A stretch of DNA of 13,207 bases from Methanobacteriota archaeon (GCA_027064305.1 JAMOPY010000041.1:1-13207), one strand, 5' to 3'. Numbered from the stretch's first letter, positions 263-9,414 are shown. The notes: generated by a model from the sequence alone, not told the origin. Numbers and translations: made by a program.

Positions 263-388
263 TTAGTCCTGGCGCTTCTTGACCCGGATCTTGACCTGCT
301 CCAGCGTGTGGGCCGCGCACGACAGTCAGATGTCGTAGCTCCGGATGATCATCTCGAGGTAGTTTAGCACGTCCTTCTTCTCGGCCAT
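263..388 (-). CDS. vhuU: F420-non-reducing [NiFeSe] hydrogenase selenoprotein subunit VhuU (41 aa, Sec at codon 21)
   Basis: Manual translation gives MAEKKDVLNYLEMIIRSYDI-U(TGA 326-328)-LSCAAHTLEQVKIRVKKRQD-TAA. It carries the hydrogenase C-terminal D-x-[C/U]-x-x-C-x-x-H motif that the upstream large subunit lacks. A GAGGGGG RBS-like site lies upstream and a SECIS lies downstream. It is absent from the ORF track. Confidence 0.95.
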
Positions 389-1716: not shown

Positions 1717-2625
1717 CTACTTACCCCCGATCACGTCCCGGTGTCCCTTCAGGATGGAGGACGCCAGGGAGAACATGTAGAGTCGTCCGGGCAGGTCCAC
1801 GAGACCCTCCAGGAGCTCCTCCACGTCCACGTCCGCCTCGAACGACACGGAGGCGAGCGCGTCCAGGAACGCGGCGCCCTGGTCCACGGCCTCCTCCGTG
1901 GGACCGTTGCAGCCGCGGCACGGCAGTCCTCGGGACGGGCACGCCGCCTCGCACCCGGCCCGGGTCGCCGGGCCCAGGCACGGGTACCCCTGCTCCAGGA
2001 GGCACTTGTCCGGGTCCGGCCTCCCCTGACCGGTCCGGAACTTGATCTCCTCGATGGGCTTGTCCTCCTTCTCCCGGGGGCACTCCTCGCAGAGGTTGGT
2101 CCTCGGGAGCTCCGGCTCCCGGTCCTCCAGCAGCGCCGTCACGATCTCCGCGATGGCGTCCGGCTTGGGCGGGCAGCCCGGGACCATGTAGTCGACGTCG
2201 ATGACCTCGCCGAGCGGCCTCACGTACTCGAAGAGCTTCGGGACGACCTCGCTGGGAACCTCGCCCTCGTCGTCGGTGCTGTGTGACTCCTCGTACACCC
2301 ACTTGAGCAGCTCCTCCCGGTCGTACAGGTTGGCCAGCCCGTGCACGCCCCCGAAGCACGCGCACGTGCCCACGGCCACGACGACCTCGGCGGCCTCCCG
2401 GAGCTCCTCCGCCACCTCCAGGTCCTCCTCGTTCCGGATGCTCCCCTCGATGAGGGCGACGTCGATCTCCTCGGGGATCTCCTTCTGATCCAGCACCACG
2501 TAGCAGTACTGGAGATCGATGGCGTCCTCCAGGAGGTCAAGCAGCCGCTCGTGCAGGTCCAGCAGCGACACGTGACAGCCCACGCAGGAGGACAGCTGCG
2601 CGGTCGCGACGGTGGCCTTGCCCAT
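1717..2625 (-). CDS. vhuG: F420-non-reducing hydrogenase small (Fe-S) subunit (VhuG/MvhG family)
   Basis: Motifs SSCVGC, IEGSIRN, VGTCACFGG, VPGCPP, LCEECPR, CLLEQGYPCLGPATRAGC and CRGCNGP are present. It lies directly upstream of vhuA (1-nt gap). Confidence 0.93.
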   Translation of the reverse strand: MGKATVATAQLSSCVGCHVSLLDLHERLLDLLEDAIDLQYCYVVLDQKEIPEEIDVALIEGSIRNEEDLEVAEELREAAEVVVAVGTCACFGGVHGLANLYDREELLKWVYEESHSTDDEGEVPSEVVPKLFEYVRPLGEVIDVDYMVPGCPPKPDAIAEIVTALLEDREPELPRTNLCEECPREKEDKPIEEIKFRTGQGRPDPDKCLLEQGYPCLGPATRAGCEAACPSRGLPCRGCNGPTEEAVDQGAAFLDALASVSFEADVDVEELLEGLVDLPGRLYMFSLASSILKGHRDVIGGK

Positions 2626-2656
2626 GGAGAACGCGTCCCTGGGCGGTCCGACGCGC

Positions 2657-2670
2657 TGAATTTAATACGA
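2657..2670. promoter_or_regulatory. Candidate TATA box in the divergent vhuG/ECF intergenic region
   Basis: TGAATTTAATACGA is a conspicuous AT-rich island in GC-rich DNA. It reads TTTAATA on + and TATTAAAT on -, and lies about 35 nt upstream of the vhuG ATG. Confidence 0.55.
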
Positions 2671-2732
2671 GAACGGCATTAGAGTTCCTGATGGTGCCCA
2701 TCATCGAACCGGGGGGACGGGCGATAGCCCAC

Positions 2733-3311
2733 GTGCACCTGCCGGACGGCATGATCCCGCTGCGCTGGTGCGCCCTCTGCTACGGCCTCGCGGGCTCCGT
2801 TGTCGCCCTAGGGATCTATAAGATGCCGCGCGAGCGGCTCGTCCCGGCCGGGCTCCTCGCCGGCCTCTCCTTCGCGCTGATGCAGGTGCCCATCCTGCAC
2901 GCTCATATTAACCTCACAGGGTTGATAGGAATCCTGATGGGCCCGCTGGCCTCGGCCCCGATCGTCTTCCTGGTCAACCTGGCGTGCGGGCTGCTCGGAC
3001 ACGGTGGAATCACCCTGGTGGGGCTGAACACGCTGCTGAACTGGTCCGAGTGCGCGGGCGCGTGGGCCCTGTACCGGGCCCTTCGGGGCGCGATCGGGGC
3101 CAGACTCGCCGCCGGGATCGCCACCTTTACGGTCCTGTCCACCACGGCCCTCGTCGCCGCGCTCATCGTCGCGCGGGTCGTCGGCCGGTCCCCTTACTAC
3201 TTCCTGATCACCCTCACGCCGAGCTGGATCCTAACGGCGGCGATCGAGGCCCCGATCACGGCCTCGGCCGTGGCCGCGCTGGAGAGGATGACGCCGGAGT
3301 GGGTGCGCTGA
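2733..3311 (+). CDS. cbiM: Ni/Co ECF transporter substrate-binding component (CbiM/NikM family)
   Basis: A GTG start at 2733 gives the family N-terminus MHLPDG. The protein has a second His region (HAHINLTGLIGILMGP), GHGGITLVGLN and multiple TM helices. The track start at 2691 is probably too long. Confidence 0.85.
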   Translation: MHLPDGMIPLRWCALCYGLAGSVVALGIYKMPRERLVPAGLLAGLSFALMQVPILHAHINLTGLIGILMGPLASAPIVFLVNLACGLLGHGGITLVGLNTLLNWSECAGAWALYRALRGAIGARLAAGIATFTVLSTTALVAALIVARVVGRSPYYFLITLTPSWILTAAIEAPITASAVAALERMTPEWVR

Positions 3312-3314
3312 GCG

Positions 3315-4010
3315 TTGCGTGTGGAGGAGATCCTGGAGTGGTCGCTCACCGCGAACACCGCGCTCCATCGGGTGGACCCGGCGACCAAGCTGGGCTGCCT
3401 GTCCGCCACCCTCCTGGCCCTGCTGCTGGTGCGGGACCCGTGGGGAGCGCTGCTGCTGTCCCTACCGTACCTGATCGGCGCGCTCGCTGCCCGGGTACCC
3501 TGGGGCTCCATGGCGCGCCTCTCGGTCGTCCCGCTCGGCTTCCTCGGGGCGATCCTCGCGCTAATGCTTCCCACCGGCGTACCCGCGCGCGAGGTCGCCC
3601 TCTACGCGGCCCGCGGGTTCACCGCGCTGCTGGCGACGCTGCTCGTCGCCTTCACCACCCCGTTCAACGCCCTATGGTCCTCGATCGCGAGCCTGATGCC
3701 CGGACGCCTGGCGGAGATGGCGCTGCTGTTTCACCGGTCCCTGTACGGGATGATCGACGACCTGAACGGGCTTCTGAGGGCGGCCCGGATGCGGGGGGCC
3801 CGGCCCGGACCCCGCCTGATCGGGGTGCTCGTGGCGACCCTGCTCGCCCGGAGTCACGAGTCCGCGCGGAGGCTGATGGCGAGCCTGGAGGTGCGGGGAG
3901 CCCGCGGGAGGGTGCGCCCGCTCCGTCGTCCGCGCCCGTCCCGGGAGGACGCGGCGTGGACGCTGCTCACGCTGCTCTCGATCGCGCTCGCGCTCCTGAG
4001 GGGGGTGTGA
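3315..4010 (+). CDS. cbiQ: ECF transporter transmembrane T component (CbiQ/NikQ family)
   Basis: It has LHRVDPATKL, hydrophobic helices, TTPF, and the Arg motifs ARMRG and LEVRG. It lies between the M and ATPase genes. TTG start. Confidence 0.85.
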   Translation: MRVEEILEWSLTANTALHRVDPATKLGCLSATLLALLLVRDPWGALLLSLPYLIGALAARVPWGSMARLSVVPLGFLGAILALMLPTGVPAREVALYAARGFTALLATLLVAFTTPFNALWSSIASLMPGRLAEMALLFHRSLYGMIDDLNGLLRAARMRGARPGPRLIGVLVATLLARSHESARRLMASLEVRGARGRVRPLRRPRPSREDAAWTLLTLLSIALALLRGV

Positions 4011-4026
4011 CGGGATCGGTTACGCG

Positions 4027-4848
4027 GTGAAAATCGAGTGCCTGGAGCACGAGTACCCCGACGGCACCCGCTCCGTGTGCGGGCTGACCCTGAAGGTTCG
4101 GGAGGGCGAGTCGGTGGTCGTCCTGGGCCCGAACGGGTCCGGCAAGACCACGCTGCTGCACCACGTGATCGGGCTGCTGGAGCCCAAGGATGGATACATC
4201 GAGGTGCTGGGGCACGAGCTGCCCGAAGAAGTCCACCGGGTGCGGGAGAGGATGGGCGTCGTGTTTCAGGACGTGGACGACCAGCTGATCATGCCCAGCG
4301 TGCTGGAGGACGTGGCCTTCGGGCTAGTCAATCAGGGCGTGCCCCGGAGGGAGGCCTTCGAGCGGGCGGAGCGGGTGCTGCGGGAGCTGGGCATCGAGCA
4401 CCTGAGGGATCGACCGCCCCAGTTCCTGAGCGGGGGTCAGAAGAAGCTCGTGGCGCTCGCGGGCGCGGTGGTCACGGAGCCCGACCTGCTGGTGCTGGAC
4501 GAGCCGACCTCCGGGCTGGACTACCGGGCCACGCGGAGGTTCGTGCGGCTGATCTCCGAGCTGAAGGAGCGGATGGACTTCACCCTGATCCTCACGACGT
4601 TCGACGTCGACGTGGCGGCCGAGCTGGCGGATCGGGTGGTGGTGCTCAAGCGGGGGAACGTGGTCGCCGAGGGGCCGCCCCGGAGGGTGCTCACCGACGT
4701 GGATCTAATGCGTTCCTCCGGCTTGAAGCCGCCGGAGCACGTGGAGCTGCTGCGGGAGCTGGGCGTGAAGCGGCCGCCGCTGGATCTAACGGAGGCGAAG
4801 AAGGTGCTGCGGGAGCTGGTGGGGGAGAGGCTAGATGGAGGCCCGTAG
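4027..4848 (+). CDS. cbiO: ECF transporter ATPase (CbiO/NikO/EcfA family)
   Basis: Walker A GPNGSGKTT, Q-loop VFQD, signature LSGGQKK and Walker B LLVLDEP are present. The H-loop reads TTFD rather than THD. Confidence 0.9.
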   Translation: MKIECLEHEYPDGTRSVCGLTLKVREGESVVVLGPNGSGKTTLLHHVIGLLEPKDGYIEVLGHELPEEVHRVRERMGVVFQDVDDQLIMPSVLEDVAFGLVNQGVPRREAFERAERVLRELGIEHLRDRPPQFLSGGQKKLVALAGAVVTEPDLLVLDEPTSGLDYRATRRFVRLISELKERMDFTLILTTFDVDVAAELADRVVVLKRGNVVAEGPPRRVLTDVDLMRSSGLKPPEHVELLRELGVKRPPLDLTEAKKVLRELVGERLDGGP

Positions 4849-6522: not shown

Positions 6523-7182
6523 CTGAAGGTCGCCGGCCTCCGGCCCGTCAGCTGTTCGGACGGGCTGCCGGGCGAAGTCTGCTCGGTGGTGTGGGTCCAG
6601 GGGTGCCCGCTGCGGTGCCCGTGGTGCCACAACCCGGAGCTGCGGCCCGCAACCGGAGGCACAGAGATGTCGCCCGACGAGGTGGCGGACCGGGTGAAGC
6701 GGCGCTCGGACTACCTGGACGCCGTGATCGTCTCGGGCGGGGAGCCGCTGACCCAGCCGCTCGACGAGCTCCGGGAGCTTTGCCGACGGATCCGCCGGCT
6801 GGGCCTGTCCCCCGTCCTGGACACCTCCGGGTACCCGGCGGAGCGGCTGGATCGCGTGGCGGACGCGTTCGATCGGGTGGCCCTCGACCTCAAGGCCCCG
6901 CTGCGGGACCGGGACTACCTGCGCGCGACCGGGAACGTCATGGACGCGCTCGAGCTCCGGCGCGCGGTGAACGCCGTCCGGGGCCGGGTCGAGCTGGAGC
7001 TCAGGATCACCGCGCACCCCTACCTGCCCGACGACCGCGAGTCCCTGGTCCGATCCGTCAAAGAGATCGATCCGGACTACGTGGTCGTTCAGCGGTACGT
7101 CGGTGAGGGTGAGGGGCCCGATCCGCGCGAGCTCGCGGGCGCGCTGAGGGAGGTCGTCGGAGCGGTGTTCGTGAGGGTGTGA
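6523..7182 (+). CDS. Radical SAM protein, anaerobic ribonucleotide reductase activase-like (NrdG/PFL-activase group)
   Basis: It has CxxxCxxC (GCPLRCPWCHN), SGGEP, LDTSG and DLKAP. Family-like sequence extends upstream of the track start (6586) to a CTG at 6523 preceded by GGGGAGGGG. The start position is uncertain. Confidence 0.82.
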   Translation: MKVAGLRPVSCSDGLPGEVCSVVWVQGCPLRCPWCHNPELRPATGGTEMSPDEVADRVKRRSDYLDAVIVSGGEPLTQPLDELRELCRRIRRLGLSPVLDTSGYPAERLDRVADAFDRVALDLKAPLRDRDYLRATGNVMDALELRRAVNAVRGRVELELRITAHPYLPDDRESLVRSVKEIDPDYVVVQRYVGEGEGPDPRELAGALREVVGAVFVRV

Positions 7183-8564
7183 AGCCGTTGCGGGTGCGGT
7201 TCGAGGTCAAGGACCGGGACGTCGCCGGGCGCCTCGCCCGGTTCGAGGTGAACGGGCGCCGACTCGAGACGCCCGCCCTGCTCCCGGTCATCAACCCGAA
7301 CGACCCGGTGGTCCCGCCCAAGGAGATCGGTCGGATGGGTTTCGACGGGGTGATCACCAACGCGTACATCATCCGGAGGCACGAGCACCTGCGTCGGGAG
7401 GCGCTGGAGCGCGGCGTGCACGGGCTCCTGGACTTCGACGGGTTCGTCATGACCGACTCCGGCTCCTTCCAGCTCGCGGAGTACGGGGACGTGGACGTCA
7501 CCAACCGGGAGATCGTGCGGTTTCAGGCCCGGATCGGGTCGGACGTGGGCACCATCCTGGACATTCCCACCCCGCCCGACGCGCCCCGGGATCGGGCGGA
7601 GCGGGACGTGGAAACGACCGTCGAGCGGGCCCGGGAGGCCGCCTCGCTGGACGAGCGCCCGCCCCTGGCCCTGACCGTGCAAGGATCCACGTACGAGGAC
7701 CTGCGGCGGGAGTGCGCGGAGCGGCTCGCCGAGCTCCCGGCCGCGGTCTATCCGGTCGGCGGCGTCGTGCCCCTCCTGGAGGAGTACCGGTTCGCCGACG
7801 TCGTCCGCGTCGTCCTCGCCGCCAAGTCGGCCCTACCGCCCCACCGACCGGTGCACCTCTTCGGGTGCGGTCACCCGCTGGCGATCCCGCTGGCCGTCTG
7901 CATGGGGTGCGACCTGTTCGACTCCGCCTCCTACGCGATCTACGCGCGGACCGACCGGTACCTGTCCGTCCTCGGGACCCTCAGGCTGGAGGAGCTGCGT
8001 GAGTTCCCCTGCTCCTGCCCGGTCTGCACCCGGCACGATCCCGGGGAGCTGCGGGAGATGGACCGGGAGGAGCGGACGCGGCTGCTAGCGCGGCACAACC
8101 TCCACGAGCTGCACCGGGTGATCCGCACCGTCCGTCAGGCGATCGCCTCGGGGGAGCTGTGGGAGCTCGCCGAGTCCGTCTGCCGCGCGCACCCGGCCGC
8201 GTGGAGGGGGATGGAGGAGCTGTCCCGGCGCGGGGAGGAGCTGGAGCGATGGGTGCCCGGGACGCGACGGAGCGTCTTCGCGTTCGACGAGGTGTCCAAG
8301 GGGCGGCCGGAGCTGCGCCTGTACCGTCGTCGGCTCCGGGAGCGGTTCGGTCCGCTCGAGGGGCGAAGGCTCGTAAAGGGGCTCAAGAGACCCTTCGCCG
8401 AGCGGGTGGAGTGGCTCGAGCCCTGGGAGCTGGCCTTCGCCGACGAGTGGCTGGGAATCGTGCCCGGGGAGCTCTCGTGGACGTACCCGTGCCACTCCCT
8501 CGTGACGCCCGGGGATGATGAGGGTGAGGACCGACGGAGGGGTGAAGAGGGTCGCAGGCGCTGA
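7179..8564 (+). CDS. tgtA: Archaeosine tRNA-guanine(15) transglycosylase (ArcTGT), short form
   Basis: Motifs ETPALLPVINP, ITNAYII, MTDSGSFQL, VQGS, HLFGCGHP, GCDLFDSASY and the Zn site CSCPVC...HN are present. It has a GTGA overlap with the upstream gene. Confidence 0.92.
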   Translation: MKPLRVRFEVKDRDVAGRLARFEVNGRRLETPALLPVINPNDPVVPPKEIGRMGFDGVITNAYIIRRHEHLRREALERGVHGLLDFDGFVMTDSGSFQLAEYGDVDVTNREIVRFQARIGSDVGTILDIPTPPDAPRDRAERDVETTVERAREAASLDERPPLALTVQGSTYEDLRRECAERLAELPAAVYPVGGVVPLLEEYRFADVVRVVLAAKSALPPHRPVHLFGCGHPLAIPLAVCMGCDLFDSASYAIYARTDRYLSVLGTLRLEELREFPCSCPVCTRHDPGELREMDREERTRLLARHNLHELHRVIRTVRQAIASGELWELAESVCRAHPAAWRGMEELSRRGEELERWVPGTRRSVFAFDEVSKGRPELRLYRRRLRERFGPLEGRRLVKGLKRPFAERVEWLEPWELAFADEWLGIVPGELSWTYPCHSLVTPGDDEGEDRRRGEEGRRR

Positions 8565-9414
8565 GCTCGTGCTCTACCGGGAGGGGTCCTCGGAGTTCTA
8601 CGTGCCCGATCCGGACCGGTACTGCGAGGGCGGACTCCCCACCCGCGACGCCCCGATCGCCTTCGCCCCGAACGCGGCGGTCAACCGGTCGATTCTGGTG
8701 CTGTTCCATCGGGTCAACCGGATCGAGCGGTTCGGGGACGTGTTCTGCGGGGTGGGGGCCCGGGCCGTCCGGCTGCACCTTGAGGCGGGCGTCAGGGAGT
8801 CCGTGCTGTCCGACGTGAACCCGCTCGCCTGCCGCGTCGCCCGAATGAACGTCACCCGACACGGGCTCCGGGCCCGGGTCCACTGCCTCGACGCCGCGAT
8901 CGCGCTCTCCAGCTTCGACTTCGACGCGGTGGACCTGGACGTGCACGGGTCCCCCGTTCCGTTCGCCCAGGCCGCGTTCCGCGGCGTGGGGGACGGGTAC
9001 GTTCACCTCACGGCCACGGACCTGGAGTCCCTGTACACGCCCGCCGCCCGCCGGAAGTACCTGCTGGACGGTCCCCTGAGGGACCGGGATCCGGAGCTCG
9101 AGGCGCGCGTCATCGTGGGCGCGCTCGTGCGCCTGGCCGCCTCCGTCGACGTGGGTGCCTTCCCCCGGTACTGCCTCGTGGAGCCGGGGCTGCGCGTCCG
9201 CGTCTGCCTCGAGTGCCGCCGCGGTAAGTCGCACGCGAACCGGGCCCTGGAGCACCTGCGCCGCGAGCGGGGCGTGGGGCCCGTGTGGTCGGGCCCCCTG
9301 ACGGACGAGCGCACGCTGTCCCGGATGCGTCGGGAGCTGGATCGGGTGGACTGGCGGTCGGAGCACGTGCGCGAGGTGCGCCGGGCGCTGGGGAGTAACG
9401 TTTTGATCGCCTGA
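8515..9414 (+). CDS. Trm1-like SAM-dependent methyltransferase (divergent)
   Basis: It shows REG, NR, DVFCGVGARAVR (SAM motif I), SDVNP, DAVDLDVHGSP, LTATD and GPVWSGPL. The start may instead be 8518 or 8542. Confidence 0.75.
   Translation: MMRVRTDGGVKRVAGAELVLYREGSSEFYVPDPDRYCEGGLPTRDAPIAFAPNAAVNRSILVLFHRVNRIERFGDVFCGVGARAVRLHLEAGVRESVLSDVNPLACRVARMNVTRHGLRARVHCLDAAIALSSFDFDAVDLDVHGSPVPFAQAAFRGVGDGYVHLTATDLESLYTPAARRKYLLDGPLRDRDPELEARVIVGALVRLAASVDVGAFPRYCLVEPGLRVRVCLECRRGKSHANRALEHLRRERGVGPVWSGPLTDERTLSRMRRELDRVDWRSEHVREVRRALGSNVLIA

Follow-up and report, generated by a model that had tools for sequence, protein, structure and literature searches.

The Vhu hydrogenase of Methanococcales supplies the selenocysteine (Sec) ligand of its active site on a separate small peptide, VhuU, which is C-terminally processed after a His residue. 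In FruA and in the bacterial [NiFeSe] enzymes (PDB 2wpn, 5jsh) Sec instead lies within a full-length large subunit, and in the bacterial enzymes the SECIS element lies inside the coding region. According to a passage in PMC4989117 (citing Stock and Rother 2009), the selenoproteins VhuU, VhuD and HdrA were identified earlier in Methanococcus and Methanopyrus, so that the type of system described here was already known, as a preliminary description of the present locus had stated. VhuU also appears in Table 1 of PMC2933860. The family model NF041786 is given with a UxxC motif in a section of PMC13188914, where archaeal Sec use is confined to Methanococcales, Methanopyrales and Asgard archaea. 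An excerpt of PMC11881835 defines the methanoarchaeal SECIS as a 3'-UTR element whose internal loop, flanked by G-C clamps, is asymmetric (GAA/A) and whose terminal loop has 4-6 nt. An early read-through screen put forward seven M. kandleri candidates, with no VhuU-like peptide among those in passages of its table (PMC1242214), which fits the idea that so short an ORF is easily missed.

The window analyzed here is a stretch of 13,207 nucleotides, the whole of contig C41 in a 50-contig metagenome bin (1,208,994 bp, 69.8% G+C, 89% complete). Its source is an uncultured methanogen of the class Methanopyri, which holds the order Methanopyrales, and not a member of Methanococcales.

The vhuU gene and its in-frame TGA

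On the minus strand of the window, positions 263-388 hold an ORF of 41 codons closed by a TAA stop (ATG at 386-388, coding region 266-388, stop at 263-265). Its translation is MAEKKDVLNYLEMIIRSYDI-U-LSCAAHTLEQVKIRVKKRQD, where U is the predicted Sec encoded by codon 21 (326-328), the only TGA in the ORF. This codon stands in the context YDI-U-LSCAAH, and in MvhA the residue opposite U21 is the first Cys of the DPCLSC motif; the earlier observation that the TGA falls exactly at the first Cys position of the hydrogenase C-terminal motif was therefore accurate. The LSCAAH segment comprises codons 22-27 (308-325), in which Cys24 is the second Ni/Fe-ligand Cys and His27 (308-310) precedes the predicted cleavage site. 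With Cys written for Sec in the query, the peptide matches the NCBIfam model NF041786 (VhuU) at 65.4 bits (E 2.9e-18), below the curated cut-off of 70, over profile positions 1-41 of 45, and this is by far the best family for the peptide; a Pfam search of the 41 residues returned no match. Homology both to the VhuU model and to the MvhA C-terminus upholds the identification as VhuU made in the preliminary description. The region 263-388 is the vhuU gene, an orthologue of a known selenoprotein; the analysis confirms what had been observed and supports how it had been interpreted. The explanation taken as a whole, namely that the TGA of vhuU is read as Sec by means of a SECIS in the 3' UTR and that the product completes the active site of VhuA, is in our judgment very probably correct.

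The gene resembles vhuU of Methanococcus voltae and M. maripaludis in being a small gene of its own that immediately follows a truncated vhuA, and shares with Methanococcus VhuU a single UGA at the first Cys position of a UxxCxxH motif, a GAA/A SECIS in the 3' UTR and a tail after the His. It differs in the residues around Sec (YDI-U-LSC here, YDP-U-YSC in Methanococcus), and, unlike the Methanococcus Vhu arrangement, vhuD is not found upstream of vhuG in the present window.

A large subunit split between two genes

The hydrogenase genes, all on the minus strand, form an operon in the order vhuG (1717-2625), vhuA (408-1715) and vhuU. The small subunit encoded by vhuG matches PF01058 and, at 328.6 bits, NF045875 (VhuG; cut-off 450). 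The 435-aa product of vhuA is a [NiFe(Se)] hydrogenase large subunit that matches PF00374, with NF041785 (VhuA) as its best NCBIfam family at 558 bits, below the cut-off of 800. Its N-terminal RICGIC motif is present, with Cys60 encoded at 1536-1538 and Cys63 at 1527-1529. The C-terminal metal-binding motif is missing: the protein ends in ...AAKKLEDELVKLAE with no DPCxxCxxH, in agreement with the earlier claim that the adjacent large subunit stops short of it.

As a reference for the split subunit we took a Cys-type MvhA, full length at 483 residues, from an open frame in another genome of the genus. VhuA residues 4-425 align to MvhA 13-427 (52% identity, E 6e-142) and VhuU residues 6-29 to MvhA 438-461 (67% identity, E 1e-10), so that the two together cover MvhA 13-461. 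In this alignment, which the preliminary description had proposed as a check, VhuA ends where VhuU takes over. The end of VhuA falls about 10 residues short of the position of the C-terminal DPCxxCxxH in the unsplit large subunit, and the chain break corresponds to a ten-residue, non-conserved linker. The split enzyme and unsplit MvhA (PDB 5odc chain F and the same-genus protein) share a fold family and four metal-ligand positions, but MvhA is a single polypeptide with Cys at the Sec position, whereas here the chain is divided and a UGA encodes the ligand. The FruA encoded on contig C36 of this genome carries the motif YDI-U-ASCAAH and its own SECIS, and there Sec replaces the same Ni-ligand Cys. 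By homology to the Vhu and Mvh enzymes, Sec21 and Cys24 of VhuU would join Cys60 and Cys63 of VhuA as the four ligands of the Ni-Fe site, and the resulting enzyme would be a [NiFeSe] F420-non-reducing hydrogenase.

A 19-nt spacer (389-407) separates vhuA from vhuU and includes, 8 nt ahead of the ATG, the Shine-Dalgarno-like sequence GAGGGGG (397-403). The two genes lie in different reading frames, and the contigs of two public sequencing runs (X1 and X2) carry within the spacer two changes, A>G at 395 and one inserted nucleotide after 396, which are strain variation that leaves both genes intact. The differing frames, together with a 1-nt spacer insertion in natural variants, indicate two genes with a non-coding spacer and rule out a single vhuA-vhuU gene broken by a frameshift.

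A divided large subunit is also represented among deposited structures. VhuA residues 3-424 score 485 bits against the 418-aa large chain of PDB 9sfi/9t1s (9sfi chain g), and a further chain of these entries, 27 residues long and named "F420 non-reducing hydrogenase subunit", aligns through its residues 6-26 to VhuU residues 7-27. In the short chain of 9sfi the Sec position is given as X and residue 26 is His; the comparison is one of sequence only. A literature search found no paper for the 9sfi structure.

Conservation of the TGA and of the residues behind it

The peptide was searched against 41 genomes. A separate short frame with one TGA was present in all six genomes of the genus (the present one included), with one weaker case outside it in G028, an A+T-rich, Methanococcales-like genome; the other matches were C-termini of unsplit large subunits. 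G028 has the same layout of vhuA followed by vhuU, with the motif YDP-U-YSCAAH and a GAA/A hairpin, and differs in that a polyferredoxin-like ORF follows its vhuU, while no vhuB follows vhuU here. The five other same-genus orthologues encode peptides 70-93% identical to the present one and agree in the TGA, LSCAAH, SECIS and gene order. What differs does so only at species level: the tail sequence varies, and translation ends at TAA in the present gene and two of the orthologues but at TGA in the other three. VhuA is 85-97% identical in three same-genus loci.

Among the six genomes the TGA codon is invariant. The 15 codons before it show 64 synonymous against 9 nonsynonymous pairwise differences, and LSCAAH varies at two sites only, both third positions, with 13 synonymous differences against none that are nonsynonymous. 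A lack of conservation downstream of the TGA had been named in advance as evidence against a Sec codon; what is found there is conservation under purifying selection.

These counts bear directly on whether the TGA might be a true stop, in which case the locus would be what is left of a once full-length large-subunit gene after decay, yielding a 20-residue peptide or none. The 20 open codons past the TGA are weak evidence on their own, as frames open by chance and many spurious ORFs occur in a genome of 70% G+C, and the failure of Pfam to match the peptide would suit a remnant as well. Against this stand the absence of nonsynonymous change in LSCAAH, a SECIS 9 nt past the stop codon and a complete Sec machinery (see below), and an enzyme deprived of VhuU would miss two of its four metal ligands. 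We consider termination at this codon very improbable.

An assembly or sequencing error for TGC or TGT, which would make the product a Cys-type, VhcU-like subunit, could be entertained for a metagenome bin in 50 contigs, the more so as the Cys form of the motif exists in the full-length MvhA of relatives. Yet the TGA recurs in six of six independently assembled genomes. It was also found in the contigs of four public runs from four studies (three DNA runs from three studies and a metatranscriptome library from the fourth), all of which cover 326-328 with no other letter at these positions; the TGC or TGT that the preliminary description had named as contrary evidence is not seen in them. An error is exceedingly improbable. 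Variants in the runs at 278 and 287 are synonymous third-position changes in the tail. The RNA library (X7) contributes a single 163-nt contig (299-461), which has a depth of 2.8 and differs at 11 positions; its source is a relative, DNA carry-over is possible, and it is no proof that the present gene is transcribed.

A SECIS hairpin in the 3' UTR

A predicted archaeal SECIS lies on the minus strand at 208-253, starting 9 nt after the vhuU stop codon. The Rfam model RF01737 (flpD RNA) recognizes it from end to end (model positions 1-47) with 42 bits, where the gathering score is 40. The core (214-245) reads GGCCCGGGG-GAA-CCC-UAAC-GGG-A-CCCCGGGCC and forms a 9-bp basal stem, the GAA with its opposite A, GC clamps, a CCC/GGG apical stem and a 4-nt UAAC loop. 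The hairpin fits the definition excerpted from PMC11881835 and was also found by our own descriptor scan. Its folding energy (z = -1.74) was equaled or surpassed by 12 of 200 shuffles of this 70% G+C sequence; since folding energy is not distinctive in G+C-rich DNA, we rely on the covariance model, the motif and the position.

A strict descriptor, which demanded GAA/A with 3 bp or more in the apical and 9 bp or more in the basal stem, gave five matches in the 1.21-Mb genome, none in the mirrored genome, and 0, 0, 2, 0, 0, 0, 2, 0, 0 and 0 matches in ten block shuffles. A looser version (basal stem of at least 6 bp, [GAC]AA) gave nine matches against two to seven in shuffled genomes and was dropped as unspecific; with counts so near those of the shuffles, only the strict version is specific. 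The strict run yielded counts only, and the identities of the sites were taken from the list of the descriptor scan (contigs C41, C1, C36, C7 and C32). The five strict hairpins stand 0-38 nt 3' of genes that contain a TGA: vhuU, selD (NF010705, 432 bits), fruA (TIGR03295, 521 bits), fwuB (TIGR03129, 673 bits) and hdrA (NF040770, 935 bits, below the cut-off of 1100).

In the whole genome only the vhuU element exceeds the cut-off of the Rfam flpD model, the two other matches scoring 17.1 and 15.4 bits. The other four candidate elements escape the model, as does the SECIS behind vhuU in G028. It does match 3' of vhuU in all five same-genus relatives, above the cut-off in four and at 37.3 bits in one. 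The Rfam "flpD RNA", typed as Cis-reg, is here the vhuU SECIS, and in practice it is a narrow model for this lineage. Our literature search found no paper that equates the flpD motif with a SECIS, flpD occurring there only as a protein name; in PMC2864571 the motif is represented by a table row giving Euryarchaeota and RF01737.

A convergent ORF on the plus strand (1-231) overlaps the hairpin at 208-253 and runs off the start of the contig. Its product is hydrophobic and membrane-protein-like, has no Pfam match and ends in ...GRPGPSGPGSR before a TAG at 229-231. The ending is the same in five of the six same-genus genomes; in the sixth, a loop longer by one base shifts the frame to a later TGA. 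Since the TAG lies inside the complement of the apical loop, the SECIS is also coding sequence on the opposite strand.

Sec machinery and the decoding of UGA

The search for Sec machinery that the preliminary description had recommended found every component in the genome. A tRNA-Sec is matched by aragorn and by Rfam (67.1 bits against a threshold of 47); SepSecS scores 559.5 bits, SelB 326.4 bits and PSTK 233.9 bits (E 8.7e-70, below the curated cut-off of 290.5), and SelD is present and itself carries one in-frame TGA. This gene content predicts that tRNA-Sec first receives Ser, which PSTK would phosphorylate and SepSecS would then convert with selenophosphate supplied by SelD. Archaeal SelB would then bring Sec-tRNA to the UGA, with the 3'-UTR SECIS acting over about 90 nt.

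The UGA could alternatively be decoded by near-cognate insertion of Cys or Trp, at least when selenium is scarce. Such decoding would suit a genome in which no Cys-type MvhA back-up was found, the best tblastn match of a relative's MvhA in the assembly being VhuA itself (53% identity). As the assembly is 89% complete, however, a back-up enzyme may simply be unassembled, and near-cognate decoding has against it the SECIS, the full Sec pathway and four other genes that use the same signal. We judge it very improbable compared with insertion of Sec.

At least five genes of the bin (vhuU, selD, fruA, fwuB and hdrA) need UGA as Sec. If vhuU is overlooked, the main H2-activating enzyme for heterodisulfide reduction seems to be without half of its active site, and a genome lacking the vhuU annotation would be scored as having a broken hydrogenase. 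Nothing is changed in the knowledge of [NiFeSe] hydrogenases or of archaeal Sec decoding; since the gene is an orthologue of a selenoprotein already listed for the lineage, the value of the finding lies in annotation, and it is ordinary though correct.

The tail and predicted C-terminal processing

Behind His27 the ORF continues for 14 codons (266-307), encoding the tail TLEQVKIRVKKRQD, which is predicted to be removed on maturation. Within the first nine codons of the tail, nonsynonymous differences between pairs of the six genomes outnumber synonymous ones by 60 to 22, so constraint is relaxed there, and tail length ranges from 14 to 16 residues among relatives. Fast evolution and variable length are as expected for an extension that is removed. 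[NiFe] large subunits are generally cleaved after the His or Arg of the motif, and the original M. voltae study reportedly dealt with VhuU processing. We infer cleavage after His27, which would leave a 27-residue mature peptide and is the least certain part of the explanation; the predicted length fits the 27-residue chain of PDB 9sfi and the VhuU of M. voltae, measured as 26 aa and 3016 Da according to an excerpt of PMC9929600. After metal insertion the 14-residue tail would be cut off and the remaining peptide clamped into VhuA.

The peptide may instead be read through to its full 41 residues and then left unprocessed, or trimmed elsewhere than after His27. In favor of this, searches found only one HycI-family maturation protease in the genome (FrhD equivalog, 188.7 bits, C9:3891-4286, minus strand) and likewise one in each of three relatives of the genus that are 99% complete, whereas G028 has three, and in the 27-residue PDB chain the His stands at residue 26 and not at the end. 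One protease may serve FruA, VhuU and MvhA alike. The relaxed constraint on the tail, its variable length, the measured size of M. voltae VhuU and the general rule for [NiFe] large subunits all speak for removal after the motif. A different fate of the C-terminus is unlikely, though it keeps a small real share of the probability, and cleavage after His27 remains our preferred prediction.

Possible opposite meanings of UGA on one mRNA

In selD and fruA the SECIS stem begins immediately behind the terminal TGA (0 nt; C1:25222-25260 and C36:56126-56165), and the Sec-UGAs of these genes lie 90-957 nt upstream. Likewise, in three of the six same-genus genomes (loci L033-L035) vhuU ends in a TGA 22-23 codons after the Sec-TGA, and in one of the three this terminal UGA was counted on the sequence to stand 18 nt before the hairpin. 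Read-through of the terminal UGA would add 60-91 residues to selD or fruA. We tentatively suggest that in Methanopyri one mRNA carries UGAs of opposite meaning that are told apart by their distance from the SECIS alone, an idea we regard as possible but somewhat short of an even chance. If true, the distance rule would amount to a recoding "dead zone" beside the archaeal SECIS, comparable to the minimal UGA-SECIS spacing known for eukaryotic SECIS elements.

VhuD and the genomic surroundings

A three-frame read-through of 2500-3400, upstream of vhuG, found no vhuD, and PF02662 gave no match for VhuD or MvhD, the usual partner subunit, anywhere in the 89%-complete assembly. All five same-genus relatives have a VhuD with an in-frame TGA, encoded elsewhere in the genome, so vhuD is probably unassembled here. 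Three of these relatives also have a stop-free, Cys-type MvhD, which in two of them is encoded within a few kb of a match to Cys-type MvhA; in a fourth, a split copy occupies the corresponding place. In G005, the nearest relative (87% complete), a match to MvhA was likewise absent in a peptide search.

The G+C content of 69.8%, the same in window and genome, compares with 56-65% at the loci of the five relatives, a large spread for one genus. In all five (L031-L035) the SECIS is followed, some 280-340 bp further on, by a tRNA gene; the present contig does not extend that far, and its end may reflect a break in the assembly at the position of this gene or close by.

Divergent from vhuG, the window encodes a CbiM-type transmembrane component and an ABC ATPase (2691-3311 and 4027-4848, both on the plus strand), possibly a nickel/cobalt uptake system beside a nickel enzyme. 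Further along the plus strand, 8511-8566 resembles a C/D-box sRNA (sR1 at 31.4 bits, with a gathering score of 45, and snoPyro_CD at 27.5), with two weaker Rfam matches at the same place; the segment sits where a TGT-family ORF (7179-8564) ends and a Trm1-like ORF (8515-9414) begins.
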